Shown here: positions 1 through 31,726 of the stretch, in pieces
How the letters are laid out: each line of letters starts with the position of its first letter
Position numbering within the stretch: position 1 is the stretch's first letter
IMG/VR virus record: IMGVR_UViG_3300033067_000056
Span: 1 to 31,726 of that record
Reading direction: 5' to 3' (one strand)
From: a virus
Lineage: Duplodnaviria > Caudoviricetes
DNA: 31,726 nucleotides
Made by a program: the position numbers and the translations under genes
The notes under the pieces: model-generated
What the model saw: the letters and a program-made list of their open reading frames with translations, nothing else
Databases searched by the model: none
Told to the model about the DNA's origin: nothing

Positions 1-1
1 C

Positions 2-406
2 CAAGAACTACAAACTACTTTTCAATTAATTGACGAAACATACGGTCGCGGATGGGTTCATGACGACGATCCCAAGTTTACAGTTGCAGGTGTAATATAC
101 CTAAGCCCAGATGCACCTGATGGGTCTGGAACAACATTATACGGCGACCAAACAGATTTTAACGGCGACTTGTATACTGAGATTTTTATGAATGATGTGC
201 TAGTAGCAGATGCTGAAGAACGAGCTAGAGCTGCCAAGTACAGAGAAGAACAAATTTCTCACTTCACTCCAACTACAGAAATAGGGCATGTATACAATAG
301 ATGTATTATGTTTGATCCACGAACTTGGCATAGTGCTGATCAGTTCTTTGGAACTAACAAAGATAATACACGCCTAACACAAGTATTTTTTATCAGAGCA
401 CTCTAA
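2..406 (+). CDS. 2OG-Fe(II) oxygenase-fold protein (DUF6445-like), 5' truncated by the window edge
   Basis: The frame is open from base 2, upstream of the tracked 170 start, and reads QELQTTFQLIDETYGRGWVHDDDPKFTVAGVIYLSPDAPDGSGTTLY. It has an HxD motif, a distal His (TWHSA) and an R in RLTQVFF, the double-stranded beta-helix (DSBH) oxygenase pattern. Confidence 0.75.
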   Translation, partial: QELQTTFQLIDETYGRGWVHDDDPKFTVAGVIYLSPDAPDGSGTTLYGDQTDFNGDLYTEIFMNDVLVADAEERARAAKYREEQISHFTPTTEIGHVYNRCIMFDPRTWHSADQFFGTNKDNTRLTQVFFIRAL

Positions 407-1011
407 TGCGTAGAACACTAAAGCAACCTATAAAAATAATTGACGATTTCCTAGAAGCTCCAACACTATGGAGACACTTTGGTTTGCATCAATCACTGCA
501 ATCTGGAAATTATCCTGGGTTAGAGTCTGAACATATTGATGCATTAAACCCTGCATTGTTCCACAGAATTGCCTCTAAATTAATCAAGCACATACCTACT
601 GCTACTTCTTTTTCTTATTTGAAAATAACATATTCATTGGTAGATGCATCGTATAATGCTGGATGGATTAAACAATCTGATCCTGCATGTAATATTTCAG
701 GAACTATATTTTTAGATCCTGCGCCTACATTGAACACTGGTCTACAGTTCTTTACTAAAATTAAAGACAGTGATCAAAACTATTATAAAATGTTTGACGA
801 TGAAGTTGCGGCAAGTCCAATAGACCGTGCAGGCTTTATCAAATACAAGGATGAACAGGCATCATTATTCCGTCGAAATATGACTGTTGAAAATGTTATG
901 AATCGATGTGTGTTGTTCCATCCTGATGAATGGTATCGAGTTCCTAGCTACTACGGATCAACACTAGAAGATTCTAGACTAGTTATTAACTTTGTTGGAA
1001 TAGCAATATGA
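406..1011 (+). CDS. Paralog of the upstream DSBH oxygenase, lacking the Fe-binding residues
   Basis: Aligns by eye with the upstream ORF (GWIKQSDP vs GWVHDDDP; NRCVLFHPDEWYRV vs NRCIMFDPRTWHSA; SRLVINF vs TRLTQVF). TAATG stop/start overlap at 404-408. Confidence 0.7.
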   Translation: MRRTLKQPIKIIDDFLEAPTLWRHFGLHQSLQSGNYPGLESEHIDALNPALFHRIASKLIKHIPTATSFSYLKITYSLVDASYNAGWIKQSDPACNISGTIFLDPAPTLNTGLQFFTKIKDSDQNYYKMFDDEVAASPIDRAGFIKYKDEQASLFRRNMTVENVMNRCVLFHPDEWYRVPSYYGSTLEDSRLVINFVGIAI

Positions 1012-1625
1012 ACACACAGTACGGATCATTTGCAAATTACGGTTTTATCAAAGCCCAAGTGCCTACGCCTTTATTAGAAAAGTTGCGAGCTGAAGTTGAC
1101 GAGCTAGATGCATCATCGCCTAAATTCAACATGAACTTAGCAGGCAATCTTGAGTCAGAATTTAAGCTAGGTAAGAATAAGGAAGAGCTAGAAGCGTTCT
1201 TATTAACTCTGTGTCAAATGTATACACAGTCTTGGGACTTGACTAGAACTGTAAAAGATTTGAGATCTGATAATTTAGAATTGTATAGTCATTGGGTTAA
1301 TCTGCAAAAGAAGCACGAATTTAATCCGATGCATTCACATGACGGAGCATATAGCTTTGCCTTATGGTTAAAAGTTCCGTACACTATACAAGATGAAATT
1401 AATCATCCAAGTAGTGTTAACTCCAATTCCCCACGCGGCGGCATGTTTTCTTTCATATATACTAACATATTTGGAGAAATTAGAGAAGCTGAGTTTCCTG
1501 TAGATCGTAGTTACGAAGGTACTGTATTTTTGTTTCCCTCGTGTTTACAGCATACAGTATACCCATTCCGCAGTTCAGATGACACTAGGATATCTATCTC
1601 GGGAAATTTAAGAAGAAAATTATGA
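1008..1625 (+). CDS. Putative 2OG-Fe(II) oxygenase (HxH type, TIGR02466-like)
   Basis: WVNLQ..FNPMHSHDG, LFPSCLQHTVYPF and RISISGN motifs; ATGA overlap with the previous gene. Confidence 0.8.
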   Translation: MNTQYGSFANYGFIKAQVPTPLLEKLRAEVDELDASSPKFNMNLAGNLESEFKLGKNKEELEAFLLTLCQMYTQSWDLTRTVKDLRSDNLELYSHWVNLQKKHEFNPMHSHDGAYSFALWLKVPYTIQDEINHPSSVNSNSPRGGMFSFIYTNIFGEIREAEFPVDRSYEGTVFLFPSCLQHTVYPFRSSDDTRISISGNLRRKL

Positions 1626-2233
1626 ATGATATTATAGAGATTGAAAATGTTATCCCGTTAGATTATCAAAAGCATCTATTGGACTTAACTACTGGATTTA
1701 ATTTTCCATGGGTGCTAAACAAGAATATCGTATCAGGCGATGACTGTTTTGCAGACCAAAAAAATAATCCGGCGGGTTTCAATCACTTCTTTTACGAGAA
1801 TAATAAACCAACTAGCAACTTCTTTGATATAATTTATCCGATGGTTATGAGCATAACTAGCCAAGTTAAAGACTTGCCTATTAATAGATTAATCCGTGCT
1901 CGTGCAAACTTAACACTGGCTAATCATGCTCCTGAAGCTGATCAGTTTATGCCTCATATTGATAGTTTCTTTCCACACTATGTTGCTATCTACTATGTCA
2001 ATGATAGTGACGGAGATACAATTATCTTTAATGAAACTAATGATACATATGACTCAGGCGATACAGACATTAATAAAATCAAAACAGGTCCATTTACTAT
2101 CAAGCGTCGAGTAACACCTAAGCAAGGCAAGGTATTATTGTTTCCTGGAAATTATTATCATACAGCTAGCTTCTGCAAATCGTCAAAGTACAGATGTTTG
2201 ATCAACATGAATTTAGGATCATTCTTACTATGA
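1622..2233 (+). CDS. Putative 2OG-Fe(II) oxygenase
   Basis: PHIDS (HxD), IYYVNDSDGDT, LFPGNYYHTAS and RCLIN motifs; ATGA overlap. Confidence 0.8.
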   Translation: MNDIIEIENVIPLDYQKHLLDLTTGFNFPWVLNKNIVSGDDCFADQKNNPAGFNHFFYENNKPTSNFFDIIYPMVMSITSQVKDLPINRLIRARANLTLANHAPEADQFMPHIDSFFPHYVAIYYVNDSDGDTIIFNETNDTYDSGDTDINKIKTGPFTIKRRVTPKQGKVLLFPGNYYHTASFCKSSKYRCLINMNLGSFLL

Positions 2234-2784
2234 AAGATTATATACTACACCAATCAGAGTATATTCTGACACATCGTAATGACATTGATATTCATCTTGC
2301 AGAAGCACACAATAATTTTAAAAGATTATTTCCCACTGCTGACTCGACTTGGTCTTATAACAAATATAATCTGTTTGCACTAACTGCACCGTCTAGCATT
2401 TTTTATGAAATGTATAAAGAATTAAGAAATATAGTCAGAGGACAGTTAGGCGATCAAAGACCGTTATGGATACAAGCGTGGGTTAACTATCACAGACCTG
2501 AAGAAGTATTAGATTGGCACGAACACGAATTTGATTATCACGGATATATTAGCATTGATCCTAAACGCACAAATACTGTGTTCGAAGGATATTCTATAGA
2601 AAATAAACCTGGACAAATATATTTTGGCCCAGGTTATAGAAAACATAAAGTAGAAGTATTAGAACCTTTTGAAGGTTATAGAACTACTATTGGTTTTGAT
2701 ATACATGCAACTCCAGTTAATCCGCTAGTTCAAGACTATATCGAGTTACCGTTTGTTAACATGTCACTGATACCCTTATTATGA
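2230..2784 (+). CDS. Putative 2OG-Fe(II) oxygenase (HxH type)
   Basis: AWVNYH..LDWHEH, RKHKV and RTTIGFD motifs. Start set at ATG 2230 because it forms an ATGA overlap with the upstream stop. Confidence 0.7.
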   Translation: MKDYILHQSEYILTHRNDIDIHLAEAHNNFKRLFPTADSTWSYNKYNLFALTAPSSIFYEMYKELRNIVRGQLGDQRPLWIQAWVNYHRPEEVLDWHEHEFDYHGYISIDPKRTNTVFEGYSIENKPGQIYFGPGYRKHKVEVLEPFEGYRTTIGFDIHATPVNPLVQDYIELPFVNMSLIPLL

Positions 2785-3416
2785 AAGACGATTATATAAT
2801 TATTAAAAACGCAGTTTCACCTGACTTGTGTAAGTTTATTGCACTTGAATATGAAATGATGGAAACTGTTTGCAATCATTTATATCAAGGCGCTGACTTA
2901 TCTGACCTATGTAAAAACACATTTGCTAGATACAGTCCCTTAATGATGGAAGCATTGAGTGTGCAACTACAACCACAAATTGAGACAGCAGTTAACATGC
3001 GATTATTTCCTACCTATTCATATGCTAGAATATACTATGAGGGTAGCGAGTTACAACAGCACTTTGATAGGCCTAGTTCAGAAGTCACTGTAAGTGTATG
3101 CTTAGAAAAAGGCGTAGACTGGCCATTATATGTGCAGAATGCAGAAGGTGTAACTCATGCACTTGAGTTAGAAGTTGGTGATATTGGAATATATTCAGGG
3201 CGCAAACACAAACATTGGCGCGAACCGTTATCTGGAAAAAGACACATTCAGGCGTTTTTACAATATGTAAATGCTGAAGGTGACGATGCCTGGCTAAAGT
3301 GGGATACTCGGGCTTGTTTAGGCTTACCCTTTGAGTATACTAGCCAGGCAATTCAAAATGAGCTAAAGCACATTGCTAGCGTTAAGGACTTGCTCGATAA
3401 CGCTAGAAGAAATTAA
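2781..3416 (+). CDS. 2OG-Fe(II) oxygenase, prolyl-hydroxylase-like phage family
   Basis: PTYSYARIY..L..HFDRPSSE.TVS, GD..IYSG..HKHWRE and QAFLQYV motifs, typical of phage 2OG oxygenases. Confidence 0.8.
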   Translation: MKDDYIIIKNAVSPDLCKFIALEYEMMETVCNHLYQGADLSDLCKNTFARYSPLMMEALSVQLQPQIETAVNMRLFPTYSYARIYYEGSELQQHFDRPSSEVTVSVCLEKGVDWPLYVQNAEGVTHALELEVGDIGIYSGRKHKHWREPLSGKRHIQAFLQYVNAEGDDAWLKWDTRACLGLPFEYTSQAIQNELKHIASVKDLLDNARRN

Positions 3417-3584
3417 TTAGGCTTCTTCAACTAAGAACGGGCCGGCTACGATTCTTTTAACACCGTGGCGCTCTTCAAAAATCTTTGCGGCTTCGTCTCT
3501 ATTTTTAGCTTCGCAAGTATCTTCCATAACGGCTAGTGTCCCTGCTGGTTCAGGCTGTCTTAGAATCATCTTATATGTAGGCAT
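3417..3584 (-). CDS. Small 55-aa protein missing from the ORF track (MPTYKMILRQPEPAGTLAVMEDTCEAKNRDEAAKIFEERHGVKRIVAGPFLVEEA)
   Basis: ATG at 3584, AAAAGGAG Shine-Dalgarno just upstream and a CATAAATA motif at 3606-3613 (-). It fills the intergenic gap exactly, with its TAA abutting the TAA of the convergent gene. Confidence 0.8.
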   Translation of the reverse strand: MPTYKMILRQPEPAGTLAVMEDTCEAKNRDEAAKIFEERHGVKRIVAGPFLVEEA

Positions 3585-3608
3585 TGTATGTCTCCTTTTA
3601 CTATCTAT

Positions 3609-5168
3609 TTATGCTGTGCGCTGGACCCATTCTTCAATGGTCCAAAACGGCTTAACGAGATCTTGGTATCTCGATTCGTTGATATTTAGTACTTTTTGTC
3701 CTATGGGCAATAGTCGTTGATGCACATTTGCCATAGTAGAATGATCAAATACTGTTAGTCCTTGCAGAACCATTAGCCATGCAGTGTATGAATACCCGTT
3801 AACATACGGCTCTGCATCAGTACACATGTAGTATTTCTTCCAGCCTGCTAGTTTTTCTTGCAAGCTATCAGGAACACGGAAGCTATCATATGCATGGCTT
3901 TTCCAGAAATCTGTATCTCTGCGTTGTCCTCGATAATGCAATGCTAAGAAATCTCTGATGTCTTCAGTAATATGCCATACACGATCGTTAAATCTATCAA
4001 CACGGGCAGTATCTATGTCAGCCTCAAATGGCTTCCACAAGTCGAATAGTGCCCATAAGTTCTCAATAATAACACCAACTCCGTTAGCTTCTAAGGGCTC
4101 TAAAAATCCACTACTAAGTCCAATAGCTATAGTATTATTACGCCATGCTTTTTTCATGATGCCTGGAGTGAAACTAAAATTTGCAATAGGTTCAATATGC
4201 TCACCAAACTTTTGTCTTGCTTCGTCTAAGGCTTGATCAAGTGTTAGATGATCGGGATCATAAATGTAACCGTTGCCTGAACGATGTCTAAGGTTGATAT
4301 TCCAACTCCAACCATACTTCATTGCCGTGGCATTTGTTGTTACTGAATATTCAGGTTTATCCCACCATGCTACTACTGCTCTCGCTGGGAAGTAATTAGT
4401 GTAATCTACAATAGGTTCTTGATAAACTTTGCCAACTAATAGTCTAGAAAATCCTGAACAGTCAAAGAACCAATCAGCAGGTAAATCACGCTGACCGTCT
4501 AACACTATACTTGTAATGTTACCCTTCTCATCTTGAATAGCATGTTGGTATTCACCTTCAACTAAGTTTATACCCCTAGCTAATGCAGTGCTCTTAAAGT
4601 ATGCGGCACCCGCTCTGCTTTCAAAATGCCACATAGGAACACATGGCAACTCAAAGTTAGATGCACCAAATGGTACTTTATTTTCTTCAATGAACTTGTT
4701 AGCGTAGAATGCTTTTGCTAGAGGAGTGTTGTTAGCAATGATTGTTTTTAAGTAAACATCTTTTTCTTTTTCAGCATTAAGTATGCTAAACACTGTGCCT
4801 AAATTTAATTCTTCTTGAGGTGCATTGTTAACATAATCAGTCCAGCCGTCTAGCCACGGAGCATGATCTGTTTGCAAGCAATGAATGAATTCACTACCAA
4901 CTCCGTTCCAATCTTTAAACTTACCGCCTAACTTAGGAGTGGCATTTACTTCACGAACAAAATGGTCGTTATCAATTTTTAAATGTCTTAACAAAGCAAC
5001 AAAAGTAGTAGTACCACTTTCGCCTGCAATGATAGGAGGACGCTTAGGATCTTCTACTACAGTGATATCAACTTTAGGCCAGTTGCGTTGTATAAACAAT
5101 GCAGTTAGCCAGCCAGCAGTACCGCCGCCGAGTACTACAACTTTAGAATTTGTATTTAATTTCTTCAT
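3609..5168 (-). CDS. Flavin-dependent halogenase, tryptophan halogenase family (copy 3)
   Basis: GGGTAG FAD motif, AGES, ATPKLG (catalytic Lys position), FDCSGF, WSWNIN (WxWxIP variant), FLEPLEANG. Start set at ATG 5168 (MKKLN). Confidence 0.85.
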   Translation of the reverse strand: MKKLNTNSKVVVLGGGTAGWLTALFIQRNWPKVDITVVEDPKRPPIIAGESGTTTFVALLRHLKIDNDHFVREVNATPKLGGKFKDWNGVGSEFIHCLQTDHAPWLDGWTDYVNNAPQEELNLGTVFSILNAEKEKDVYLKTIIANNTPLAKAFYANKFIEENKVPFGASNFELPCVPMWHFESRAGAAYFKSTALARGINLVEGEYQHAIQDEKGNITSIVLDGQRDLPADWFFDCSGFSRLLVGKVYQEPIVDYTNYFPARAVVAWWDKPEYSVTTNATAMKYGWSWNINLRHRSGNGYIYDPDHLTLDQALDEARQKFGEHIEPIANFSFTPGIMKKAWRNNTIAIGLSSGFLEPLEANGVGVIIENLWALFDLWKPFEADIDTARVDRFNDRVWHITEDIRDFLALHYRGQRRDTDFWKSHAYDSFRVPDSLQEKLAGWKKYYMCTDAEPYVNGYSYTAWLMVLQGLTVFDHSTMANVHQRLLPIGQKVLNINESRYQDLVKPFWTIEEWVQRTA

Positions 5169-6645
5169 ATCTGTCTTTAAGAATGTTAATTGCCTGACGG
5201 TGAGTAAACACTGGCTCGTTAGTAGCAATCATATTACCTTCTGCAATCATTTTATTTGATATAGTAGTAAACATATCTAAGTGCTTTTTGTACTTGTCAT
5301 CAATCGCGGCAGTATTAAACATGTCTAGTCCGTGCATGACTTGAGCATAATTCAAGTGCGAGAACAGTTGCATCGGAGTGTTAAAGTACATAACATTTGG
5401 AAAACTATTTTTAAAATAGTCTAAGTACTGTCGATTAAAATCAGTTAGAGTTAACTCATTTTTACACCACTTCCAAAAGTCTGTATCTTCTCGTTTTGTA
5501 AAATAGTGTAGCTGAATAAAGTCAACAATATTCTTGGCAATGATTTCCATATCGTGATTATATTTGCTAGCTGTTAGTTCTTCTCCTTTGGAATAGAAGA
5601 ACACCGACGGGACTAGCATAAAACATTGTTGTATTGTAGTACCGATACTGGATGCTTCTAATGGTTCAACAAAAATCCCACTAAGACCAATAGTAACGCA
5701 GTTCTTCATCCAGAACTTATCCACATATCCGGCGCCAAATTTAACTCGACGGCCTACTTGTATGTTATCAGTAATCTTTAACTCTTTATAGTATTCAGAC
5801 ACTTCGTCGTATGCTTGAGTCTCGTTGATAAATTCATCACAAAATACATACCCGTTACCGTATCTCTCTTGAGTTGGAATTCTCCACACCCATCCGCTGC
5901 CTAATGCAGTTGCTTCAGTATATGAAGGAATGTCTTCAGTATAGCCTGTGGGAAATGCAATGGCACTATTCATAGGCAGTTGGCTAGTACAGTCAATCCA
6001 TTTAGCACCTAACTTGGAAGCAATTACTCTTCTAAAGCCGCTACAGTCAATATAGAAATCATACAGATGACTAGTGCCGGTTTTGTCAATCAACTCTTTA
6101 ACATATCCTTGTTCATCTAATACAACTTCGTTAACTTCTGTATCGACAATATTGATGTTTCGTTCTCTGCACAATCTATGCAAATAGTCATTAAGTTTAA
6201 AAGTGTCAAAATGATATTGACTTAAAATTCCGTGCAATGGTTCTACATGTTTACTATCTTGAGAAAGTTTCCATGAAGTGTCTAAAGGATCCCAGTTTTC
6301 ACCAATCATCCTAATCCAAGTGTGCGGTAATCCGTTTTCTTTAGCATGGCCGCCGTATTGCTCACTTAGACTATGGAAGTAATGTGTACCGTTGCCTTGC
6401 CAGTTAGTAAACTTAATTCCCATTTTGAAAGTAGCACCTGCTTCTCTAATTAAATCAGGTACGCTTATGCCTACATGGTCAATAAACTTTTTCCAGTGTT
6501 CTGTGCTGCCTTCGCCTACACCGATGATTCCTAGTTGACTAGATTCAATCATGGTGATTTTAAGATTAGGCCATGCTTTTCTCATTATTAAAGCAGACAC
6601 TAGACCACTAGTTCCGCCTCCTAAAATACATAATGAATCTATCAT
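5143..6645 (-). CDS. Flavin-dependent halogenase, tryptophan halogenase family (copy 2)
   Basis: GGGTSG, IGVGEGS, ATFKMGIKF, IDCSGF, canonical WVWRIP, FVEPLEASS. Confidence 0.9.
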   Translation of the reverse strand: MIDSLCILGGGTSGLVSALIMRKAWPNLKITMIESSQLGIIGVGEGSTEHWKKFIDHVGISVPDLIREAGATFKMGIKFTNWQGNGTHYFHSLSEQYGGHAKENGLPHTWIRMIGENWDPLDTSWKLSQDSKHVEPLHGILSQYHFDTFKLNDYLHRLCRERNINIVDTEVNEVVLDEQGYVKELIDKTGTSHLYDFYIDCSGFRRVIASKLGAKWIDCTSQLPMNSAIAFPTGYTEDIPSYTEATALGSGWVWRIPTQERYGNGYVFCDEFINETQAYDEVSEYYKELKITDNIQVGRRVKFGAGYVDKFWMKNCVTIGLSGIFVEPLEASSIGTTIQQCFMLVPSVFFYSKGEELTASKYNHDMEIIAKNIVDFIQLHYFTKREDTDFWKWCKNELTLTDFNRQYLDYFKNSFPNVMYFNTPMQLFSHLNYAQVMHGLDMFNTAAIDDKYKKHLDMFTTISNKMIAEGNMIATNEPVFTHRQAINILKDRYEEIKYKF

Positions 6646-8117
6646 AGGGTATATCCTTTTGTTCGATCTTTAATAATATCTACTGCTTGTCTGCAAGTAT
6701 AGAATGTATCAGTGTCTAATGTAGGGACGCTGGCTACTTGCATAATTGACGCTTGTGTTAAGTGGCTATGTAATGCATCATAACATTTTTTAACATTGGG
6801 TCTATCAAACATTCTAAGCCCGTGCATAACTTGTACCCAGTTTAAAACATCATAAATGTTGTAGTTATTTACAGGCAAGGCTAGCTGATTGATAAAGTTC
6901 TTTTTAAAAATTTCTAAATGTTCTACATTAAAGTCTGTCATCTTTAAATTAGTCTTACACCACTGCCAGAACTCTGAATCATTGCGTTCAGTAAAATAGT
7001 GCAGTTGGATAAAGTCTAAAATATTAAACATCACTTCGTCAAATATTTTATTATAGTGTTTCGGTGTCACAGTATCGTTACGATCCCATGTCGCCAATGC
7101 TCCAGCTAATACTCGTGCTTGCTGGACTGTTGTAGAAATACTACTGGCTTCTAATGGTTCCACAAAGCTACTGCTCAAGCCGATACTAACACAGTTCTTA
7201 ATCCAGAATCGATCAATCTTACCAGATACAAAGTTTACTTTGCGACCAATATTAATAGCGTCTGGGAATAGCTGTTGTATCTCGTCAAGCGCCTGTGTTT
7301 CAGAAATAAATTGATCGCTGAATACATACCCGTTACCAAATCTATCCTGCACTGGACTGCGCCAATGCCAGCCACTACTTAGTGCCTTAGCTAGTGTGTA
7401 AGGCGGAAGCTGTTCTTGATATGCGCTCGGAAATGCTATGGCGCTGTTCATAGGCAAGTGTGCAGACCAGTCAACCCATGTTGATCCAAGTTTGCTACTA
7501 ATAACTCTACGAAACCCGCTACTGTCAACAAAGAAGTCTGCAGAATATTTTACATTGTTAGTATCAACAATTGACTCAACGAAGCCTTCGTTGTCTATTA
7601 ATGCATCTACAATTTCTGCATCTATAACGGTGATGCCTCGTTCTCCACACTTTCTTAAAAATAAGCTGTTTAGCTTTTCGCTGTCAAAGTGAAACTGTGA
7701 AAAGTATTCACTACCAGGAATCATTCCGTTCATAGCTAAGTCCCAGTGTAGCTCTTCAGTACCTACCCCTTCACTAATCATTCTCATCATAGTATATGGA
7801 GTACCGGTGTAGTTGTCCATTGAAATTAAGTATTCAGGCAAACTGTGATAGTAGCTAGTACCATCTCCGTGCCAGTTTTCAAATTTGATACCTGCCTTAA
7901 GAGTTGCACCTGCTTCTCTAATCAGCTCCCAAGTTTCAATTCCAGTTGCTTTTGCAAATATGTCCCAGTGTTCAGTACTGCCTTCACCAACGCCAATAGT
8001 ACCAATCTTTGCAGACTTAACTACTGTAATGTTTAAACTAGGTAACGATGCTCTCAGATATAATGCGGTCATCAAGCCTGCATTGCCGCCACCTAACACA
8101 ATTAAATTTTTTGTCAT
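6642..8117 (-). CDS. Flavin-dependent halogenase, tryptophan halogenase family (copy 1)
   Basis: GGGNAG, IGVGEGS, ATLKAGIKF, VDSSGF, WHWRSP (WxWxIP variant), FVEPLEASS. Confidence 0.9.
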   Translation of the reverse strand: MTKNLIVLGGGNAGLMTALYLRASLPSLNITVVKSAKIGTIGVGEGSTEHWDIFAKATGIETWELIREAGATLKAGIKFENWHGDGTSYYHSLPEYLISMDNYTGTPYTMMRMISEGVGTEELHWDLAMNGMIPGSEYFSQFHFDSEKLNSLFLRKCGERGITVIDAEIVDALIDNEGFVESIVDTNNVKYSADFFVDSSGFRRVISSKLGSTWVDWSAHLPMNSAIAFPSAYQEQLPPYTLAKALSSGWHWRSPVQDRFGNGYVFSDQFISETQALDEIQQLFPDAINIGRKVNFVSGKIDRFWIKNCVSIGLSSSFVEPLEASSISTTVQQARVLAGALATWDRNDTVTPKHYNKIFDEVMFNILDFIQLHYFTERNDSEFWQWCKTNLKMTDFNVEHLEIFKKNFINQLALPVNNYNIYDVLNWVQVMHGLRMFDRPNVKKCYDALHSHLTQASIMQVASVPTLDTDTFYTCRQAVDIIKDRTKGYTL

Positions 8118-8563
8118 ATTAATTCTACAATATCAAATACTGTTTGGAGTTTTGTACGGATAGTCTTATTGCTAAAACTATTACGCAATCCTTGATGTAA
8201 CGGTTTAGGAGCCCAGTCTATTGTAGACCATGCCCATGCACAATGATCTTCGCTTAGTGTTGGAACAAATTCTTTTTCAACAACGCACAAGTAAGTGTGG
8301 AAATTAAAGACTGTGTCATTACTAACGAATGTCTCAATCGGGAGTGTTTTAATAATATCGGGCATGAAGCCGATTTCTTCAACCATTTCGCGCTGAAGAC
8401 CTTGCCATGGGTTTTCGCCGGCGATGTTAGTACCGCCAACAAGGCCCCATGTGCCTTGGTGTTTGCCTCTTGACTTTTGGACTAATAAGAACCTGCGACT
8501 AGCTTTAGCGTAGATCAATGCTCCGCTACATACTATTTTATCTGTTACAGTTCTAGTCTCCAT
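8114..8563 (-). CDS. Nudix hydrolase
   Basis: Nudix box GGTNIAGENPWQGLQREMVEEIG (Gx5Ex7REUxEExG). Confidence 0.9.
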   Translation of the reverse strand: METRTVTDKIVCSGALIYAKASRRFLLVQKSRGKHQGTWGLVGGTNIAGENPWQGLQREMVEEIGFMPDIIKTLPIETFVSNDTVFNFHTYLCVVEKEFVPTLSEDHCAWAWSTIDWAPKPLHQGLRNSFSNKTIRTKLQTVFDIVELI

Positions 8564-9969
8564 TCGCCGGCCTTATATTCACCTTCAAAAGATTTAGTCC
8601 ATGAAACATTGTTCCAGTAGTACTGAATTCTTTTACCATTGTATATATTAGTTTGATACAGGTCTTGGTCGGGTTCTTGAGCGTTAAATACTACTTGCCA
8701 ATTTACACCATCATACTCGATAATGTCGTTAGCATAAGCAGTAAAGTTACCCCAAGCATCTGTATTTTGAGGGATGTCCTCGATGATTAGGAAACGATCA
8801 CCGGCAGTTTCGCCAGTCATACCATGTCCAGGATACACTTTAGTTGGATCAATAATAGCATCAAATGTACCTAGTTCTCTGCCGCCGTTTGCACTACGGT
8901 CACCCGGTGATGGTAAATCATCATTAGGGTTTACATTAATCCAGTCACCGCTGATGATTAGTTGAGTAGGATCTGTTAAGTCAATACCAACATACCCCCA
9001 AATTTCACCGCCGCCGGGTTGTACTAGAATTAGTTTACTTGATCCAGGTACAAATTGTCCAGGGTACTGAGAAAATACAGTGTCCCATGCAATTGGTGTC
9101 CCTTGTCTAATAGCAATTTCTAAACTAGGCGCTCTAGGCAGTGCGTTTTCAGTTGCACCCATAACAGCAATGTACTTGTCGTAGACTTGGATACCAAAGT
9201 CGCTGATAGTAACAACATCTCTAGTTAGTTGATCGCTCATGGTAGTTGTACCGCCAGACAGGTCGTTGCCGTAACTGTCAACACCAGTCCAACCACTATC
9301 GGCAGCACCAAAGATACTAGTAATGACACTAGTAATGACACCAAGATGCTTGACCTTAACTGGAGGACTTAACCAGATAGGAGTTTCCAAATTCATTGTA
9401 GCAATAGAGATAGCCGAGTCTGCACCTTGAGGAACTTGTCTACTATCCCATACAAGGTCTTTAAGTTCTAAAACTGTTAAACTTGTCCAGTCAATGTAGT
9501 TGTCACTAGTTTGTAATTCTAAACTAGGATTAAACAAGACTAGTAGCTGTTCAAGAATTTGTAACTTTTGATCAGTGTTGGCCGCCCATATATCAACTTT
9601 CATAGTTAAAGTAAAAGGAGTAGGCATCAAGCGTTCGACTGTGTAATTCTTACCTTGACTATTTAGGTATTCGTTGTTATCAGAGTCGTAAGCTCTTTCT
9701 CGAATATGTAACTTACCAATGTGTGTAGCGTCTGCTAATCTTGCACGGTCCATTGATAGTCCACTAACATATACTGCAATGCGTGGAGTTGAGTTAACTG
9801 CGTTCTCTGAGTTTTGTCTAATGATAGCCGCAACTTGTCTGTCTTGATCTCCGTACATTACTGGAATTCTGTGTAATGTACCATCGCCATATTTTACTGT
9901 GAAGTTACTCAACGCACGAATAGTCTGCGTGATATATCTTCTAATTTGTCCGTCATAAAAATGAAGCAT
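8545..9969 (-). CDS. gp15: Tail terminator / sheath stabilizer, T4 gp15-like, with C-terminal extension
   Basis: N-terminus HFYDGQIRRY...IPVMYG...PRI...PTPFTL...DQKLQILEQLLVLFNP matches the gp15 pattern; adjacent to the gp14- and gp13-like genes. Confidence 0.8.
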   Translation of the reverse strand: MLHFYDGQIRRYITQTIRALSNFTVKYGDGTLHRIPVMYGDQDRQVAAIIRQNSENAVNSTPRIAVYVSGLSMDRARLADATHIGKLHIRERAYDSDNNEYLNSQGKNYTVERLMPTPFTLTMKVDIWAANTDQKLQILEQLLVLFNPSLELQTSDNYIDWTSLTVLELKDLVWDSRQVPQGADSAISIATMNLETPIWLSPPVKVKHLGVITSVITSIFGAADSGWTGVDSYGNDLSGGTTTMSDQLTRDVVTISDFGIQVYDKYIAVMGATENALPRAPSLEIAIRQGTPIAWDTVFSQYPGQFVPGSSKLILVQPGGGEIWGYVGIDLTDPTQLIISGDWINVNPNDDLPSPGDRSANGGRELGTFDAIIDPTKVYPGHGMTGETAGDRFLIIEDIPQNTDAWGNFTAYANDIIEYDGVNWQVVFNAQEPDQDLYQTNIYNGKRIQYYWNNVSWTKSFEGEYKAGEWRLEL

Positions 9970-11138
9970 TATACATCCGCCTGCGGTTTAAGTTTAAGAG
10001 CATGTGAAAGACTTTGTCTTTCTTCAATAACATCGCCACCGATGGTATTTGTAGTTGTGTTGTTAATGAAACTAGTTTTAAGAGTCTGTCTAGTATCGTT
10101 GTTGGTCATAGTCATACGCACATTGTCTTCCATCTTAACCCAACGCAGTCCGTCATATCGAAATAGTCTGTTAGGCAAGAAGTCATTGCGTAAGAAGTAA
10201 TCGTCTTTGGTAGCACCGTCTGGGAACTGCGGCCCTAATCCAAAGGCAGCGCCGTTCATTGGAATGCCGTCGCCTAACAAGTAACCACTGTAACCGTTGC
10301 GCTCAGGCGCAGGTGCAGTTGTTGCAGATAACAGCGCAGAGCTAGCATCAATTGTAGCCGCATCAGCAGTAGTTAATAAAGTTTTGCCATTAGCATCTAC
10401 TGCTAGGGTATAGAACTGTCTAGTTTCATATCCGCTCATTGGAGCATCAGCTTCTGCTTGATTTAAAATAGCATCATTAATTTCTAATTCTTTAGCACGA
10501 GTACTTAGAACGCTTTCTAAGGTAACACCTTCTACTGGATCGCCGTTGGCATCTAATACAGTCTGTTTAAGAATGTCGTCATACTGTTGACCGCCAGTGA
10601 TCTTTTTAAGTTTTAATCTATACAAGTGTGGGAACCAAGTTGAGCTAAAGCCTTCGCTAGCACGGCCCACATCTTCAATTACATAATAGCGAGGTAGTGC
10701 AAAGTCGTGATCGCTAAGTGCGAACTGATCACGCAAGTGCGGTAACTCTAGTACATCGCCGCTAATAGGCTTACGACCAATATACTTGATAAAGTCGTTA
10801 ATGTGTACTGTCATGAATAGTGTGTCATTGTCGATAAACAAACCAAATTGACTTAGGTTAAAGTCGATGTTCTGTACATTATACAAGCCACGAATAGTGT
10901 ACACACTCTCATCGTATTTTCTATCACGATTTTCTAAGAACAACAAATCTTGAATATTTGTCGGACTTTGTACATCGTAAACAGGCTGATCTACAGTACC
11001 TGTTTCAGGGCTTTTAGGGCCCAGGTATTTGTGGAGGTAAACATCAGTTCCGCCCGCCTGAAACATTTCTGAAATCTGACGGTCGATGAACTTGTAGTCG
11101 TTCCCTCGTTCTGGTTTGTATAAGGATAATCGTGGCAT
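9969..11138 (-). CDS. gp14: Neck / head-closure protein, T4 gp14-like
   Basis: G.DVYLHKY, DLLFLE, LSQFGLFID.D.LF, P..GDVLELP pattern; located between the gp13- and gp15-like genes. Confidence 0.7.
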   Translation of the reverse strand: MPRLSLYKPERGNDYKFIDRQISEMFQAGGTDVYLHKYLGPKSPETGTVDQPVYDVQSPTNIQDLLFLENRDRKYDESVYTIRGLYNVQNIDFNLSQFGLFIDNDTLFMTVHINDFIKYIGRKPISGDVLELPHLRDQFALSDHDFALPRYYVIEDVGRASEGFSSTWFPHLYRLKLKKITGGQQYDDILKQTVLDANGDPVEGVTLESVLSTRAKELEINDAILNQAEADAPMSGYETRQFYTLAVDANGKTLLTTADAATIDASSALLSATTAPAPERNGYSGYLLGDGIPMNGAAFGLGPQFPDGATKDDYFLRNDFLPNRLFRYDGLRWVKMEDNVRMTMTNNDTRQTLKTSFINNTTTNTIGGDVIEERQSLSHALKLKPQADV

Positions 11139-11143
11139 AATGA

Positions 11144-11163
11144 TATTTATCGTAAGATAAATA
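11144..11163. promoter_or_regulatory. Back-to-back divergent late-type promoters (GATAAATA on each strand)
   Basis: TATTTATC-GTAA-GATAAATA lies between the divergent gp14 and gp13 genes and resembles the T4 late promoter TATAAATA. Confidence 0.75.
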
Positions 11164-11179
11164 TGTATGGAGAACTAAT

Positions 11180-11947
11180 ATGTCAGATTCTACATCATTA
11201 ATTGAACGCAACAAGGTATTTGAGTATGTCCGCACGATGCTGGGCGACGGCATGGTTGAGGTAGAACTAGACCCTAAGCATTACGAAACCGCGCTTACTC
11301 GTGCGCTAACACGCTACAGACAGCGCAGTCCTAATGCTGTTGAAGAAAGTTACAGTTTTCTAGAGTTAATTCAGGATCAAAACGAGTATCGTTTACCGGA
11401 TGAAATTATTGAAGTACAAAGTGTATTTCGTAGAGCAATCGGTTCACGCAGTGGTTTGGGTGCAGGCGGAACATTGTTCGAGCCGTTCAACTTGGCGTAC
11501 ACAAACACATACTTGATGAGTGGAACTATGATGGGCGGCCTGGCAACATACGAACTATTTGCAGGATATCAAAAGTTAGTAGGTCGTATGTTTGGTAGCT
11601 ACATTGAATTTAAATGGAAGCCTACAAGCCATATTTTAAACATCCTACAACGCCCGTTTGCACAAGGTGAACAGATCCTAATTAAGTCTCACAACTATCG
11701 CCCTGATTTTGTACTACTTACAGATATCTACGCAAAACAATGGTTGTACGATTACACCCTAGCAGTATGTAAACAGCAACTAGGACAAGCCCGTAGCAAG
11801 TTTGGTAGTATTGCAGGCCCTGGCAGTTCGATTACCCTAAACGGTTCAGCCCTGCTAGCCGAAGCAAAAGAAGAACTAGCAGCCTTGGACAAAGAGCTCG
11901 AAACATACATTGCAGGTGGTACTGGTTACAGTTTTGTAATTGGTTAA
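11180..11947 (+). CDS. gp13: Neck protein / head-tail adaptor, T4 gp13-like
   Basis: LG...VEVEL N-terminus and WLYDYTLAVCKQQLGQARSKF...G.ITLNG..L..EA..E C-terminus; GGAG RBS. Confidence 0.85.
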   Translation: MSDSTSLIERNKVFEYVRTMLGDGMVEVELDPKHYETALTRALTRYRQRSPNAVEESYSFLELIQDQNEYRLPDEIIEVQSVFRRAIGSRSGLGAGGTLFEPFNLAYTNTYLMSGTMMGGLATYELFAGYQKLVGRMFGSYIEFKWKPTSHILNILQRPFAQGEQILIKSHNYRPDFVLLTDIYAKQWLYDYTLAVCKQQLGQARSKFGSIAGPGSSITLNGSALLAEAKEELAALDKELETYIAGGTGYSFVIG

Positions 11948-11954
11948 CTAATAT

Positions 11955-11984
11955 TTGCTCTCCTAGTACAGGTTGCTATATACT
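11955..11984 (+). promoter_or_regulatory. Possible sigma70-type promoter for the dNMP kinase gene, inside an inverted repeat
   Basis: TTGCTC-N18-TATACT upstream of AGGAG and ATG 12008. Confidence 0.45.
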
Positions 11985-12007
11985 AGCAAAACTACTAGGA
12001 GATTCTT

Positions 12008-22188: not shown

Positions 22189-24519
22189 ATGGACTCTAAC
22201 TTAGATAAAATTGCACTAGATTTGTATGGCAAAATACAAACCCGTTTCCCTAATATTCAAATGGGGGACGAAAACGCCACTGTGTTAAGCAGAAGGGCAG
22301 ATATTCCAAAGGCACGCTTCTTTGAATTTGAATACGAAGAAGGCGGTGAACCGCTAGGCACTATTGCTATTACACTAGATGCAGATGACGGTATTGTACT
22401 TCAAGTCAGCGGCGACTTAGTCAACGACAATGATAACACTACACATCACGGCGCATACAAGTTTATCAGATCTTTCAGACAATTTGCTAAAGATCGCTTG
22501 TTAAACTTTGATGTACAGAACATCGGAAAGAGCAATATGCAAAAGAGAGATTACGAGTTTCAGGCGAAACCTAAGGAACAACCAATGGAACCAATGATGG
22601 AAAACAAGATGTACGGTAACAATAAAATGAGTTACCAAGATTTAGGTGAGAATGCAAGACTTGTAGTTAAGCACAATGCGCCGGTAAACTTAGACTTGGC
22701 AGCAGGCCGCACAATGCACATTGAAAGCATCTATATCGAAAACGCACATGGCGAAAGATTTAAGTACCCTTTCAAACACCTTAACGGTGCTCGTGCTTTA
22801 GCAGAACATATTAAAGCAGGTGGAACACCATACGACGGCATTGGTAAACACATTTGCAGTCTAAGTGAAGAACTAGCAAGCCTACGCAAGTTTAAAGGTT
22901 ATGTTGGTCGTCAAGAACAATTATCAGAAGCAATGGATGATATTACAAGTGTAGTATTAGAGCGCATTGATTCTATCAAGAAAGAAATCCACAGCTTACA
23001 ACGCCCAGCATACTATCAAAGTTTTGCTGAGTCATTTGAAGAGCGTGAACAAAAAGCAATCCCAGAAGCAATTATGAATGACTGGATTGATCGTTTAACA
23101 ATCCGTACATTCAACGAAGAGCTAACAGCAGTGTTCCCATACATTTACAATCTAGTAGATGAGTCAATGGTTCCTGTTAAAGAAGTTAGCGCCGATGATA
23201 TCCTAAGCGAATTGAGCAAAGATACACTAAGCAATTACAGCGACAAAGCTGACATGGACATTGTCAAGAAGCATCGCAACCGTAGTGGTCAATCTGATGC
23301 AGGCGATGACGAAGCAGTTTCTAAAACAGACAAGCACATTGACAAGCGCATGAAAGGTATTGATCGTGCAGTTAATCGTTTGAATAAAGAAAGTTTAGAT
23401 CCTGAGTTAGCGTTTGAAAATTTCATGGATTCATTAATGGCTGAAGGACAAGACGAATTGTTTAGTCCTAACAAAGATGCACAGCAAACAGCTATTGAAA
23501 AACTAAACAAAATTATGGCAAAAGAATTGAAAGGCGGCCCAGAAGGCACTAACGCAATTCAAAGCCTAACAGGTATTATTGACAACCCTGAGTTCCTAGA
23601 GTCATTGAAAGATGTAGATCCGGACTTAGATGTACGCCCGTTGATTCAACAGTTTGTTACAGCTAATGCCCCAGAGATTGCATCCCAATTAAACTTTGGC
23701 GGTGAAGAAGGTGGACAGAGTGAGCCAGAAGCAGCCCCAATGCCTGCACCTGCTCCAATGCCAGAACCAGCTCCTGCACCAGCGGCAGCACCTCCTGCAC
23801 CAGTTGCAGAAGCTAAAGAAACTGCTGAGAAAGATGACAAGAAGCTAGGTCGTGCTCAGGCACTTAAGAAGTCTATTGAACTAGCTAAGAAAGCTGGCGC
23901 AACATTAGAGACACAAGTTGATTTTGGTAGCGGCACTAAGACTATCTCAGAAATTATCCAAGAGATCGGAATGACTCCGCAAGATGTTGGATTTGAGCAA
24001 GAAGATCCTTTACAAGCAATGTTAAAGTATGTTTCAGGATTCTGGAACAGAGAAGAAAAGAATTTCCCACTTGGTGGAGAGCGTGTTAAGATTAAAGTAC
24101 AGAAAGAGTTCGAAGACGGTCAATTTGGTAATGCTGACCCTAGAGCACTAGCACAGATCCTAGCGTTTATCGACAAGAAAGATCCTGGATCAGCACACGG
24201 ACAGCAACACGACATCTTGCGTTTGGCAGGACTTCCTGGACAAGACCGTGAAATGGATGAAGGTCCAGAAGACGCACAAATGGCCAAGTTAAATGACTTA
24301 ATGGCACAATTCAACAATATGAAAATCAAGTTCGGCGATAACGAAATTGATATGAGCAACCCAGATCAAGCAGGCGATCAGATCAAAAACATGATGGGTG
24401 GAATGATGAAGGGTGTACAAGGCCAAGTACCTAATCAAAACATTCAGTTCCCAGGCGGACAAATGAATCCTGCAGACATGATGAAGGACATCATGGGCAA
24501 AATTAACTTTGGAAAATAA
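22189..24519 (+). CDS. Large hypothetical protein, probable virion/head protein with Pro/Ala linker
   Basis: 776-aa ORF with GATAAATA at 22177-22184; modular, with a PAPAP tract and a Met/Gln/Gly-rich tail. Confidence 0.65.
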   Translation: MDSNLDKIALDLYGKIQTRFPNIQMGDENATVLSRRADIPKARFFEFEYEEGGEPLGTIAITLDADDGIVLQVSGDLVNDNDNTTHHGAYKFIRSFRQFAKDRLLNFDVQNIGKSNMQKRDYEFQAKPKEQPMEPMMENKMYGNNKMSYQDLGENARLVVKHNAPVNLDLAAGRTMHIESIYIENAHGERFKYPFKHLNGARALAEHIKAGGTPYDGIGKHICSLSEELASLRKFKGYVGRQEQLSEAMDDITSVVLERIDSIKKEIHSLQRPAYYQSFAESFEEREQKAIPEAIMNDWIDRLTIRTFNEELTAVFPYIYNLVDESMVPVKEVSADDILSELSKDTLSNYSDKADMDIVKKHRNRSGQSDAGDDEAVSKTDKHIDKRMKGIDRAVNRLNKESLDPELAFENFMDSLMAEGQDELFSPNKDAQQTAIEKLNKIMAKELKGGPEGTNAIQSLTGIIDNPEFLESLKDVDPDLDVRPLIQQFVTANAPEIASQLNFGGEEGGQSEPEAAPMPAPAPMPEPAPAPAAAPPAPVAEAKETAEKDDKKLGRAQALKKSIELAKKAGATLETQVDFGSGTKTISEIIQEIGMTPQDVGFEQEDPLQAMLKYVSGFWNREEKNFPLGGERVKIKVQKEFEDGQFGNADPRALAQILAFIDKKDPGSAHGQQHDILRLAGLPGQDREMDEGPEDAQMAKLNDLMAQFNNMKIKFGDNEIDMSNPDQAGDQIKNMMGGMMKGVQGQVPNQNIQFPGGQMNPADMMKDIMGKINFGK

Positions 24520-24520
24520 T

Positions 24521-25249
24521 ATGACAAAAAGAATGATCACTGAAAGCGAATTAGCATCGAAAGTTAGTTCACTAAAAGAAAAGCTAGCTAATGAAGCATG
24601 GTATAATCCAGCTACATGGGGTGGTGGCAATACAGGTGGTGGCGCCGCCACAGGCAATCCTAAGATTGCTGCTCAAGGCAAGAAAGCTGGTGCAACACCA
24701 GCACAAGGTGCTTCAACAACTCCAGTGGCTGCACCAGCAGGACAGCCAGATCCAAATGTCAAAGCACTACAAGACAAATTAATTGCAGCCGGTGCAAAAA
24801 TTAAAGCAGACGGCATTATGGGTCCAGCTACTAGAGCCGCCCAACAACAATTTCCAAATGTAACTACACAATCACCAGAAGAACAGGCAGTAGCAAAAGA
24901 CTTACTATCAGCAAATGATGGTTCAACTACTTCAGGCGCGGCACCTGCACCTCGTGATCCAAATGCAGGACTAGCTCCTGCGGCAGCTCCTGCGGCAGCA
25001 CCAGCAGAGAAAATGGCAGACGGCGGCCCTCCTCCAACACCAGAACAACTAAAATGGTTAGGCGGTGCAGACAAGACTGATCCAATTATCCTTGCTAGAA
25101 TGAGAAGTGCAGTTCCAAATGCTCCAGCGGCAGCACCGGCGGCAACACCAGCACCGGCGGCAGCACCGGCGGCAACACCAGTTGCAGAAAGTGAAACCAC
25201 TGGCTATAATGAGCTACAGCGCATTATGAGCATTATCCAACACAGATAA
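24521..25249 (+). CDS. Peptidoglycan-binding-domain protein with Ala/Pro-rich linkers
   Basis: VKALQDKL..AG..IKADGIMGPATRAA matches the PG_binding_1 pattern; start set at ATG 24521. Confidence 0.7.
   Translation: MTKRMITESELASKVSSLKEKLANEAWYNPATWGGGNTGGGAATGNPKIAAQGKKAGATPAQGASTTPVAAPAGQPDPNVKALQDKLIAAGAKIKADGIMGPATRAAQQQFPNVTTQSPEEQAVAKDLLSANDGSTTSGAAPAPRDPNAGLAPAAAPAAAPAEKMADGGPPPTPEQLKWLGGADKTDPIILARMRSAVPNAPAAAPAATPAPAAAPAATPVAESETTGYNELQRIMSIIQHR
25121..25180 (+). repeat. 30-bp tandem duplication encoding APAAAPAATP x2
   Basis: gctccagcggcagcaccggcggcaacacca / gcaccggcggcagcaccggcggcaacacca, 2 mismatches. Confidence 0.85.
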
Positions 25250-31490: not shown

Positions 31491-31726
31491 ATGACATTGA
31501 AAGTAGCATACTTCCAACCAACAGTACTAGCAATTGATACAGTACCTCCAGTTGAGTTTAGCAAGATTTATACTCTTGCTGAACAGCTACACGCACATCC
31601 AGAATACAATGATGCGGATAATCCCTTCATTAGTATTCGCGGAGGACAACAGATCCAAGTATATCCTAATCAGCTGAACATCGATGTTAACTGGTTAGTT
31701 AAGTGGATTGAAACAATCTGTACAGG
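31491..31726 (+). CDS. 3'-truncated ORF, possibly another TIGR02466-like oxygenase
   Basis: Open frame MTLKVAYFQPTVLAIDTVPPVEFSKIY... to the window end, with an AAGGA RBS. The family guess rests only on the F.P-type N-terminus. Confidence 0.55.
   Translation, partial: MTLKVAYFQPTVLAIDTVPPVEFSKIYTLAEQLHAHPEYNDADNPFISIRGGQQIQVYPNQLNIDVNWLVKWIETICT

Follow-up and report, generated by a model that had tools for sequence, protein, structure and literature searches.

A Syn9-type halogenase and oxygenase cassette fused to the neck operon of an uncultured freshwater jumbo phage, and its link to fiber-tip genes

RESULTS

Layout of the enzyme cassette

The viral record IMGVR_UViG_3300033067_000056, analyzed here over its whole length of 31,726 nt (the window), carries at its left end a dense cassette of tryptophan halogenase and Fe(II)/2-oxoglutarate (2OG) oxygenase genes that runs into a virion neck operon. 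The layout (Table 1) was derived from the list of open reading frames (ORFs), a junction script, and family scans against Pfam and PHROG. Six plus-strand oxygenase-fold ORFs (ox1 to ox6, positions 2 to 3416) overlap by 1 to 4 nt, and the stop codon of ox6 abuts that of a 55-amino-acid (55-aa) gene closing the opposite arm. This minus-strand run of 7722 nt joins a virion structural gene, a gp15-like gene, a Nudix gene, and the halogenase genes HalA, HalB, and HalC by successive overlaps of 1, 19, 4, 4, and 26 nt, followed by a 24-nt gap before the 55-aa gene, which has an ATAAATA motif and AGGAG of its own besides its coupling to HalC.

The original prediction, made from the letters of the window, had placed the three halogenases in one unit of about 7.7 kb with Nudix, gp15-like, and gp14-like genes. 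The coupling, the length, and the upstream motif agree with that view; the name gp14-like is unconfirmed by sequence, as a profile of 72 homologs of the 9969-11138 protein matched the annotated gp14 of HTVC008M at an E value of 0.31. The prediction had also counted at least six coupled 2OG-Fe(II)-fold genes, and six oxygenase-fold ORFs are indeed present, with ox2 lacking both iron-binding His residues and the run being cut at the contig edge. The window is a fragment, namely the neck-side half of a Syn9-type halogenase/oxygenase cassette.

Table 1. Features of the cassette and neck-side unit in the window
Feature	Position	Strand	Remarks
ox1	2..406	+	C-terminal part of a DUF6445/Syn9 gp52-type Fe(II)/2OG oxygenase; HxD...H intact; 236 aa long in the 92% relative, here truncated by the contig edge
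ox2	406..1011	+	Second gp52-type paralog; both iron-binding His lost in the window's lineage
ox3	1008..1625	+	PF13759 oxygenase; HxH...H; no close Syn9 ortholog (best E 1e-5)
ox4	1622..2233	+	Syn9 gp53 match, E 1e-51; HxD...H
ox5	2230..2784	+	Syn9 gp47 match, E 3e-28; HxH...H; start probably at 2230 rather than 2194
ox6	2781..3416	+	Syn9 gp54 match, E 2.5e-42; HxD...H; last gene of the oxygenase arm
55-aa conserved protein	3417..3584	-	72 homologs; predicted beta-beta-alpha-beta; no Trp
ATAAATA late-promoter-type motif	3606..3612	-	Overlaps the HalC stop; precedes AGGAG and the 55-aa gene
HalC	3609..5168	-	PF04820, E 6e-89; Lys79 and Glu357 invariant; WxWxIN, not WxWxIP; own phage clade
HalB	5143..6645	-	PF04820, E 8e-101; Lys74 and Glu327 invariant; canonical WxWxIP; 38% to P-SSM2 gp217
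HalA	6642..8117	-	PF04820, E 2e-97; Lys74 and Glu320 invariant; WxWxSP; ATGA joint to Nudix
Nudix hydrolase, conserved third gene of the neck-side unit	8114..8563	-	Family scan
gp15-like tail sheath stabilizer	8545..9969	-	PF16724, E 6e-22
Virion structural protein	9969..11138	-	PHROG 11591; 40% to Atu_ph07 gp142; gp14-like by position only
Back-to-back GATAAATA motifs	11143..11164	minus 11144-11150, plus 11157-11163	Upstream of the 11138 gene and of the gp13-like gene at 11180

Conservation of the halogenases and oxygenases

HalA, HalB, and HalC score 299 to 339 bits against PF04820 (cutoff, 21) and carry the GxGxxG flavin motif. Their catalytic Lys and Glu, located by alignment to PrnA (K79 and E346 of that enzyme), are invariant across 23 HalA, 26 HalB, and 22 HalC aligned orthologs. 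The WxWxIP motif is exact in HalB and reads WxWxSP in HalA and WxWxIN in HalC, with both Trp residues invariant. The alignments to PrnA end at residues 429 to 436, leaving unmatched the C-terminal Trp-binding loop at about 440 to 459; this does not reveal the substrate. In a midpoint-rooted FastTree phylogeny of 61 sequences, HalA and HalB are sister groups (support, 0.995; 46% identity) in a clade with P-SSM2 gp217, and HalC forms a separate clade. None of the three is a VirX1 ortholog: all fall outside the Syn9 gp42/VirX1 clade, with 24 to 29% identity to the VirX1 ortholog of relatives. Among the best 80 of 589 and of 95 loci, cellular halogenase relatives are at most 33% identical, except for L140 and L220, which are contigs in metagenome bins. 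HalA to HalC belong to clades that are specific to phages and separate from that of VirX1; they may prove useful as catalysts. An obligate HalA/B/C heterotrimer, an idea taken from the VirX1 trimer, was rejected in view of the absence of HalA in L085, L129, L220, L317, and L318. A PF01613 flavin reductase was found in none of five partial genomes of relatives, whose completeness (36 to 75%) precludes demonstrating its absence; given this result, reduced flavin is likely supplied by the host. A phage-clade halogenase grouping with HTVC008M gp079 was seen in L141, a short contig of a bin labeled Klebsiella that is probably viral or misbinned.

The Hx(D/E/H)...H iron triad and the Arg/strand motif are present in ox1, ox3, ox4, ox5, and ox6, with the His positions conserved across 15 to 24 orthologs each; ox6 orthologs vary between His, Gln, and Lys at the last motif. 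Since oxygenase triads are present, the PHROG labels "minor coat protein" (ox1/ox2), "DNA endonuclease V" (ox4), and "ferrochelatase" (ox6) were not adopted. In ox2 of the window and of L081, a 92%-identical relative, Lys and Tyr replace the two iron-binding His, and paralogs of this type have lost iron-binding His in several lineages (L081, L092, L119, and L124). Thus, ox2 is likely inactive as an enzyme and possibly acts as a pseudo-enzyme or scaffold subunit. Between the window and L081, the ratio of nonsynonymous to synonymous substitution rates (dN/dS) of the nine enzyme genes is 0.013 to 0.079 (dS, 1.1 to 2.9), with ox2 at 0.079, and the 55-aa protein is identical. Such ratios argue that the enzyme genes are maintained and are not relics.

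Near collinearity with the Syn9 array

Iyer et al. described in 2010 an array in cyanophage Syn9 comprising ten dioxygenases (including a MINA/NO66 homolog), two Trp halogenases, and a protein of the dUTPase fold in which one Cys is conserved (PMC2938197). They proposed that it serves secondary-metabolite synthesis, and the accessible part of that article does not link the phage array to fiber genes (PMC2938197). The window likewise combines tandem dioxygenases of several families with Trp halogenases: ox1 and ox2 correspond to Syn9 gp52, ox4 to gp53, ox5 to gp47, and ox6 to gp54. L081 also matches Syn9 gp43 (E 7e-94), gp49 (E 4e-88), gp51, gp48, gp46, gp44, and gp42, reaching a total of 4 halogenases and 11 oxygenase-fold genes. 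It holds, past the point where the window's contig ends, the MINA/NO66-type JmjC gene, whose best solved relative is the protein histidyl hydroxylase NO66 (E 2e-7), and a putative dUTPase-fold Cys protein. Its far end carries fiber genes and three Gly/His-rich tip genes, which match Syn9 gp39 at E 1e-69 to 1e-87. A gp40-like gene and a fourth halogenase are also located there, each behind an ATAAATA motif, and no other such motif lies on that strand down to ox6. The fourth halogenase of relatives is a VirX1 ortholog (E 1.7e-194 to PDB 6QGM) inside the Syn9 gp42/VirX1 clade. This VirX1-like gene is tandemly duplicated in L117, L125, L127, L128, L395, L420, and L427, which brings those loci to five halogenases.

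The cassette consists of two converging arms between a fiber operon and the neck operon, and its near-collinear orthology with Syn9 gp40-gp54 identifies it as the array of Iyer et al. The enzyme cluster itself has been known since 2010; the neck fusion and the HalA-B-C arm are what differ. Orthologous oxygenases are near collinear with Syn9 gp41-gp54, and L081 adds the MINA/NO66 JmjC, gp43, gp44, gp42, gp40, and gp38/39-type tips behind ATAAATA. Unlike Syn9, the window phage has a second converging arm with three halogenases of other clades and the 55-aa gene, fused to the neck unit. HalA to HalC share the fold family and the catalytic Lys and Glu of VirX1 from cyanophage Syn10 (PDB 6QGM), whose ortholog in relatives lies at the cassette's far end, but they are not orthologs of it (HalB, E 3e-40; separate clades). 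The closest halogenases of cultured phages (33 to 38%) are P-SSM2 gp217, divergent from fiber-assembly genes, and HTVC008M gp079, between terminase genes. Both adjoin structural genes, but each of those regions has one halogenase match, with neither an A-B-C trio nor a 55-aa gene seen there. Halogenases and multiple 2OG oxygenases have been tabulated for cyanophages (PMC3037559), and a halogenase is reported in 20 of 153 of them (PMC10452541).

The neck fusion is a local, probably derived rearrangement

Conservation of the neck link was assessed in 75 viral contigs with an A-B-C arm at at least 44% identity, of which 63 were informative and 12 cut. L220, the lone HalB-like genes of L330, L340, L342, L351, and L353, L354, and the distant L011, L132, L136, L138, L139, L357, and L359 to L370 were kept outside this tally. 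The trio is fused to Nudix in 2 of the 63 contigs, equivalent to 1 of 27 informative clusters (90% HalB identity) and belonging to the window's own lineage. In the other 61 contigs, a divergently oriented gene precedes the arm, which is usually led by two additional oxygenases; the arm starts after ATAAATA opposite a fiber-type gene in 30 contigs and after ATATATA opposite an oxygenase in 31. Wiring of the enzymes to the neck operon, as originally predicted, therefore holds in the window's lineage and not elsewhere. Because the HalB of the window nests among divergent-start contigs in the tree, the fusion is most simply explained as a deletion; it likely removed the arm's own promoter and 2 to 4 genes and captured the neck promoter. 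We regard this architecture and the derived nature of the fusion as highly probable. As a local rearrangement, the fusion is of modest interest by itself.

Some loci nevertheless favor the original prediction. Among 80 gp14-anchored loci, 42 were too short and 38 informative. After Nudix, 10 of these have halogenase-like genes in the same-strand run, 6 have only oxygenase or gp43-like genes there, 8 carry enzymes solely on the opposite strand or past an interruption, and 14 show none in the retained flank; enzyme sets thus follow Nudix on the neck strand in 16 of 38. An independent Nudix-halogenase ATGA junction occurs in L354, and L357, L359, L360, L363, and L369 show long enzyme runs on the neck strand, which in L357, L359, and L360 can be seen to meet tip genes in convergent orientation. 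In the cultured phage HTVC008M, a halogenase gene and an oxygenase gene lie between those of the terminase, downstream of gp13-15. Read-through from a late structural unit recurs, with no fixed tie to neck proteins. These were rejected as the conserved partner, given the 2 of 63 fusions and the same neck proteins in relatives with no enzyme seen after Nudix.

The many unrelated contents found after Nudix in the 38 loci, 14 of them with no such enzyme seen, could mean that the slot between fiber and neck operons is a recombination hot spot collecting late enzymes with separate jobs and no single pathway. The repeated absence of HalA, the variable presence of ox3, and the recurrent decay of ox2 point the same way. 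We nonetheless find this account decidedly unlikely: the core gene order is kept at 45 to 75% identity and is nearly collinear with Syn9, and the 55-aa gene remains after HalC in every contig retaining that flank.

Other occupants of these loci were noted. The slot after Nudix is often taken by a GroES (Cpn10) gene that precedes oxygenases (L018, L022, L034, L049, and L064); in L069 and L048, it holds genes for an outer-membrane beta-barrel protein and a DUF401 membrane protein. A subtilase (S8) gene lies among the fiber-type genes opposite the halogenase arm in L085:5168-7192, with similar-sized genes in L119, L124, L349, and L362.

The 55-aa protein

The 55-aa gene follows HalC in 56 of 56 contigs retaining that flank, whereas more distant HalC-like genes lack it. 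It usually has its own late-type motif and AGGAG, with ATAAATA in 11 of 18 distinct upstream regions; variants of the motif also occur. Its homologs contain at most one Trp (0 to 1) and no conserved Trp/Tyr core, one Phe being the sole conserved aromatic. The protein is modeled as beta-beta-alpha-beta with a predicted local distance difference test score (pLDDT) of 80. A Foldseek search with this model gave no match at an E value of 0.001 or lower, and ESM Atlas matches were unnamed clusters only. The fold resembles eL20/LX, T7 Gp2, and PaaB at Z scores of 5 to 6.3, a common arrangement that allows no functional inference. An accessory or structural role appears more likely than that of a precursor peptide. 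Lacking Trp and a conserved modifiable core and being predicted globular, the protein is unlikely to be a precursor of the ribosomally synthesized and posttranslationally modified peptide type, and the earlier suggestion of a phage-encoded peptide as target is weak.

These data also bear on the idea that the halogenases act on the neck proteins to which they are fused or use the 55-aa protein as a precursor peptide. The genes are tightly coupled in the window and in two related contigs, which speaks for it, as do the L354 junction, the HTVC008M arrangement, and the Trp-rich gp15-like protein (13 Trp in the 92% relative). Set against these are the rarity of the fusion, the relatives that have the same neck proteins with no enzyme seen after Nudix, and the Trp-poor, coreless, predicted folded nature of the 55-aa protein, which make the idea very improbable.

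Promoter motifs and timing

In Rak2-like phages, ATAAATA is predicted to be the late motif, as described for phage CBB (PMC5259590). It is not overrepresented in the window (8 sites versus 10.0 +/- 2.9 in shuffles). Its placement is nonrandom, with 7 of the 8 sites at most 60 nt from a start codon (binomial P of about 1e-10) and directly upstream of structural genes, as in Rak2-like and T4-like late units. A scan for sigma-70 promoters returned 54 sites in the window versus 39.9 +/- 6.1 in shuffles, none convincing at HalA, and a terminator scan stayed at chance level. Judging from the motifs, the enzymes are probably made late in infection. The original prediction of apparent late expression in a virion-assembly context is supported by promoter motifs and synteny, with the motif as the basis for timing.

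Separated by a short spacer, the two late-type motifs at 11143 to 11164 form an inverted repeat that serves the 7.7-kb unit on one side and the gp13-like gene on the other. A near-palindromic GATATATA(T/G) site lies between divergent enzyme genes in 31 of 31 ATATATA contigs (45- to 85-nt spacer; L075 to L077, L082 to L084, L088, L094, and others), and TGATATATAK, considered here as a possible general late variant, occurs only one to two times per genome. The GATATATA(T/G) site may be a weak late promoter acting in both directions or a site bound by a regulator.

A stable link to fiber-tip genes

Tip-anchored loci were the best 80 of 201, of which 12 were too short (<1.2 kb downstream). In all 68 that remained, a gp40-like gene and a halogenase lie within 2 kb of the tips. 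ATAAATA precedes the gp40-like gene in 60 of 73 tip-anchored loci and the first halogenase in 48 of 69. Likewise, three tips followed by a gp40-like gene and the VirX1 ortholog occur in 8 of 8 long contigs chosen for length (G004 and G010 being outside the set). PF21722 and PHROG 863 ("tail fiber assembly") both match the tips, which share 7 invariant His in the polyglycine domain. No solved sequence relative was found for them; their model is of low confidence (pLDDT, 49), and its weak matches to the polyglycine domains of ALK/LTK, the Pam3 fiber, and the Bxb1 tip (E 0.02 to 0.2) are leads only. By gene order, the Gly/His-rich fiber-tip gene set, and not the neck genes, is the stable partner of the cassette. 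L095:12179-13357, annotated as Syn9 gp39, reads like two tip genes joined via a frame change, and Syn9 may once have had three tips, as these relatives do.

DISCUSSION

Fiber tips as candidate substrates

We read the window as the neck-side half of a Syn9-type cassette with a lineage-specific fusion, whose late enzymes would most likely hydroxylate and halogenate the Gly/His-rich fiber tips; taken as a whole, this reading is tentative and stops a little short of an even chance. The original prediction that the system modifies virion proteins would thereby shift its target, as the tips, conserved neighbors past the window's left end, are better candidates than the neck proteins. Late transcription from both flanks, as suggested by the motifs, would have the enzymes made during fiber assembly, and the halogenases would be fed with reduced flavin, likely by the host. 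The tip would be the best target as a stable neighbor from Syn9 to the window lineage that carries 7 invariant His, in a cassette whose JmjC enzyme is closest to NO66. That the tips or an assembly helper are substrates of at least part of the cassette is a real possibility, which we hesitate to call probable.

More doubtful is the extended proposal that a late 15-enzyme pathway hydroxylates and halogenates His-rich polyglycine tips, yielding naturally halogenated virion proteins and providing the native substrate of VirX1-type enzymes, with HalA-B-C as an add-on that stays under late control despite rearrangement, in the window by capture of the neck promoter. In its boldest form, hydroxy-His would let the tip bind iron and mimic a siderophore for TonB-dependent receptors, which we consider quite improbable. 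Hydroxy-His is known to bind iron in siderophores. The "Ferrojan horse" idea has been named in the literature (PMC12753301).

Several observations weigh against the tips as substrate. The tip-linked loci are 65 to 100% identical to the query and are not independent, so that the link, although reaching Syn9, may reflect plain shared descent. The neighbors of the tips are the oxygenase arm and the VirX1 ortholog, with HalA to HalC at the opposite end, and the tips carry just 1 to 2 Trp each. In another phage type (L330, L340, L342, L351, and L353), HalB-like genes stand by themselves, apart from oxygenases. Fifteen enzymes are many for one small target, and the JmjC match to NO66 is remote, with other members of its clade acting on Arg. 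Finally, the halogenase-arm motif is ATATATA in 31 of 61 contigs; as this motif is rare at structural genes (0 of 58 gp14 and 0 of 29 sheath genes), late timing is uncertain in those contigs.

Small molecules and host targets

Phage halogenases and tandem oxygenases are common. In the literature covered, from which subscription journals were mostly missing, no title or abstract opening reports a native substrate or virion modification for either. Following Iyer et al., the cassette could instead make or edit a small molecule or host metabolite, with its late position reflecting timing only. Sets of multiple oxygenases and halogenases are typical of metabolite pathways (PMC2938197), and VirX1, with its large, open active site, accepts small aromatics in vitro (PMC8407142). 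Among solved structures, the HalB profile matches bacterial halogenases best, with MibH among the weakest matches. MibH and ChlH provide a precedent for halogenation of Trp in peptides by the PF04820 family (bioRxiv 10.1101/2025.01.12.632611), but neither a precursor peptide nor a flavin reductase was found for the window phage cassette. One of five long relatives has an AMP-binding gene close to the neck genes (G007:C1:44780-45553, just past the gp13-like gene); the other four partial genomes have none. A small-molecule pathway would also leave unexplained the fixed fiber-tip link from Syn9 to an unrelated lineage, and we rate it as rather unlikely.

The protein-hydroxylase-type JmjC could serve a system that modifies host proteins or cell-surface molecules late in infection, e.g., for receptor masking or counter-defense, and the 55-aa protein has the small fold common to T7 Gp2 and ribosomal eL20/LX (Z 5 to 6). 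However, Z scores under 8 denote a common arrangement and show no function, and no evidence of a host target emerged; such a role seems improbable.

A cyanophage in culture and a freshwater jumbo-phage lineage unrelated to it have the cassette in common almost gene for gene, together with the same fiber-tip genes. This points to the fiber tips as a concrete target, testable in Syn9 or Syn10.

Source of the record

The source is an uncultured freshwater jumbo phage related to Rak2/Atu_ph07 and not a member of the Kyanoviridae. The best cultured relatives of the neck-side virion protein are Atu_ph07 (40%) and Phosso, PA5oct-like, and Rak2-like jumbo phages. Positions 1 to 12000 of the window are covered in 30 of 30 bins by two freshwater metagenome runs of one study and one unlabeled run; no piece among the matches listed from metagenome contigs spans the Nudix-HalA junction. 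An 8-kb contig of a Polynucleobacter bin, L220 (JBBAKF010000091.1), holds a HalB ortholog and fiber genes and is probably viral or misbinned; as a clue to Polynucleobacter as host, it was too weak to be used.

Two further genes of the window deserve mention. A cut ORF at 31491 to 31724 (78 aa), past the UvsW-like region, had no PHROG match, and its opening residues may hint at an oxygenase-like gene. Between the terminase region and the single-stranded-DNA-binding gene, positions 24509 to 25249 encode an Ala/Pro-rich protein with a peptidoglycan-binding domain.

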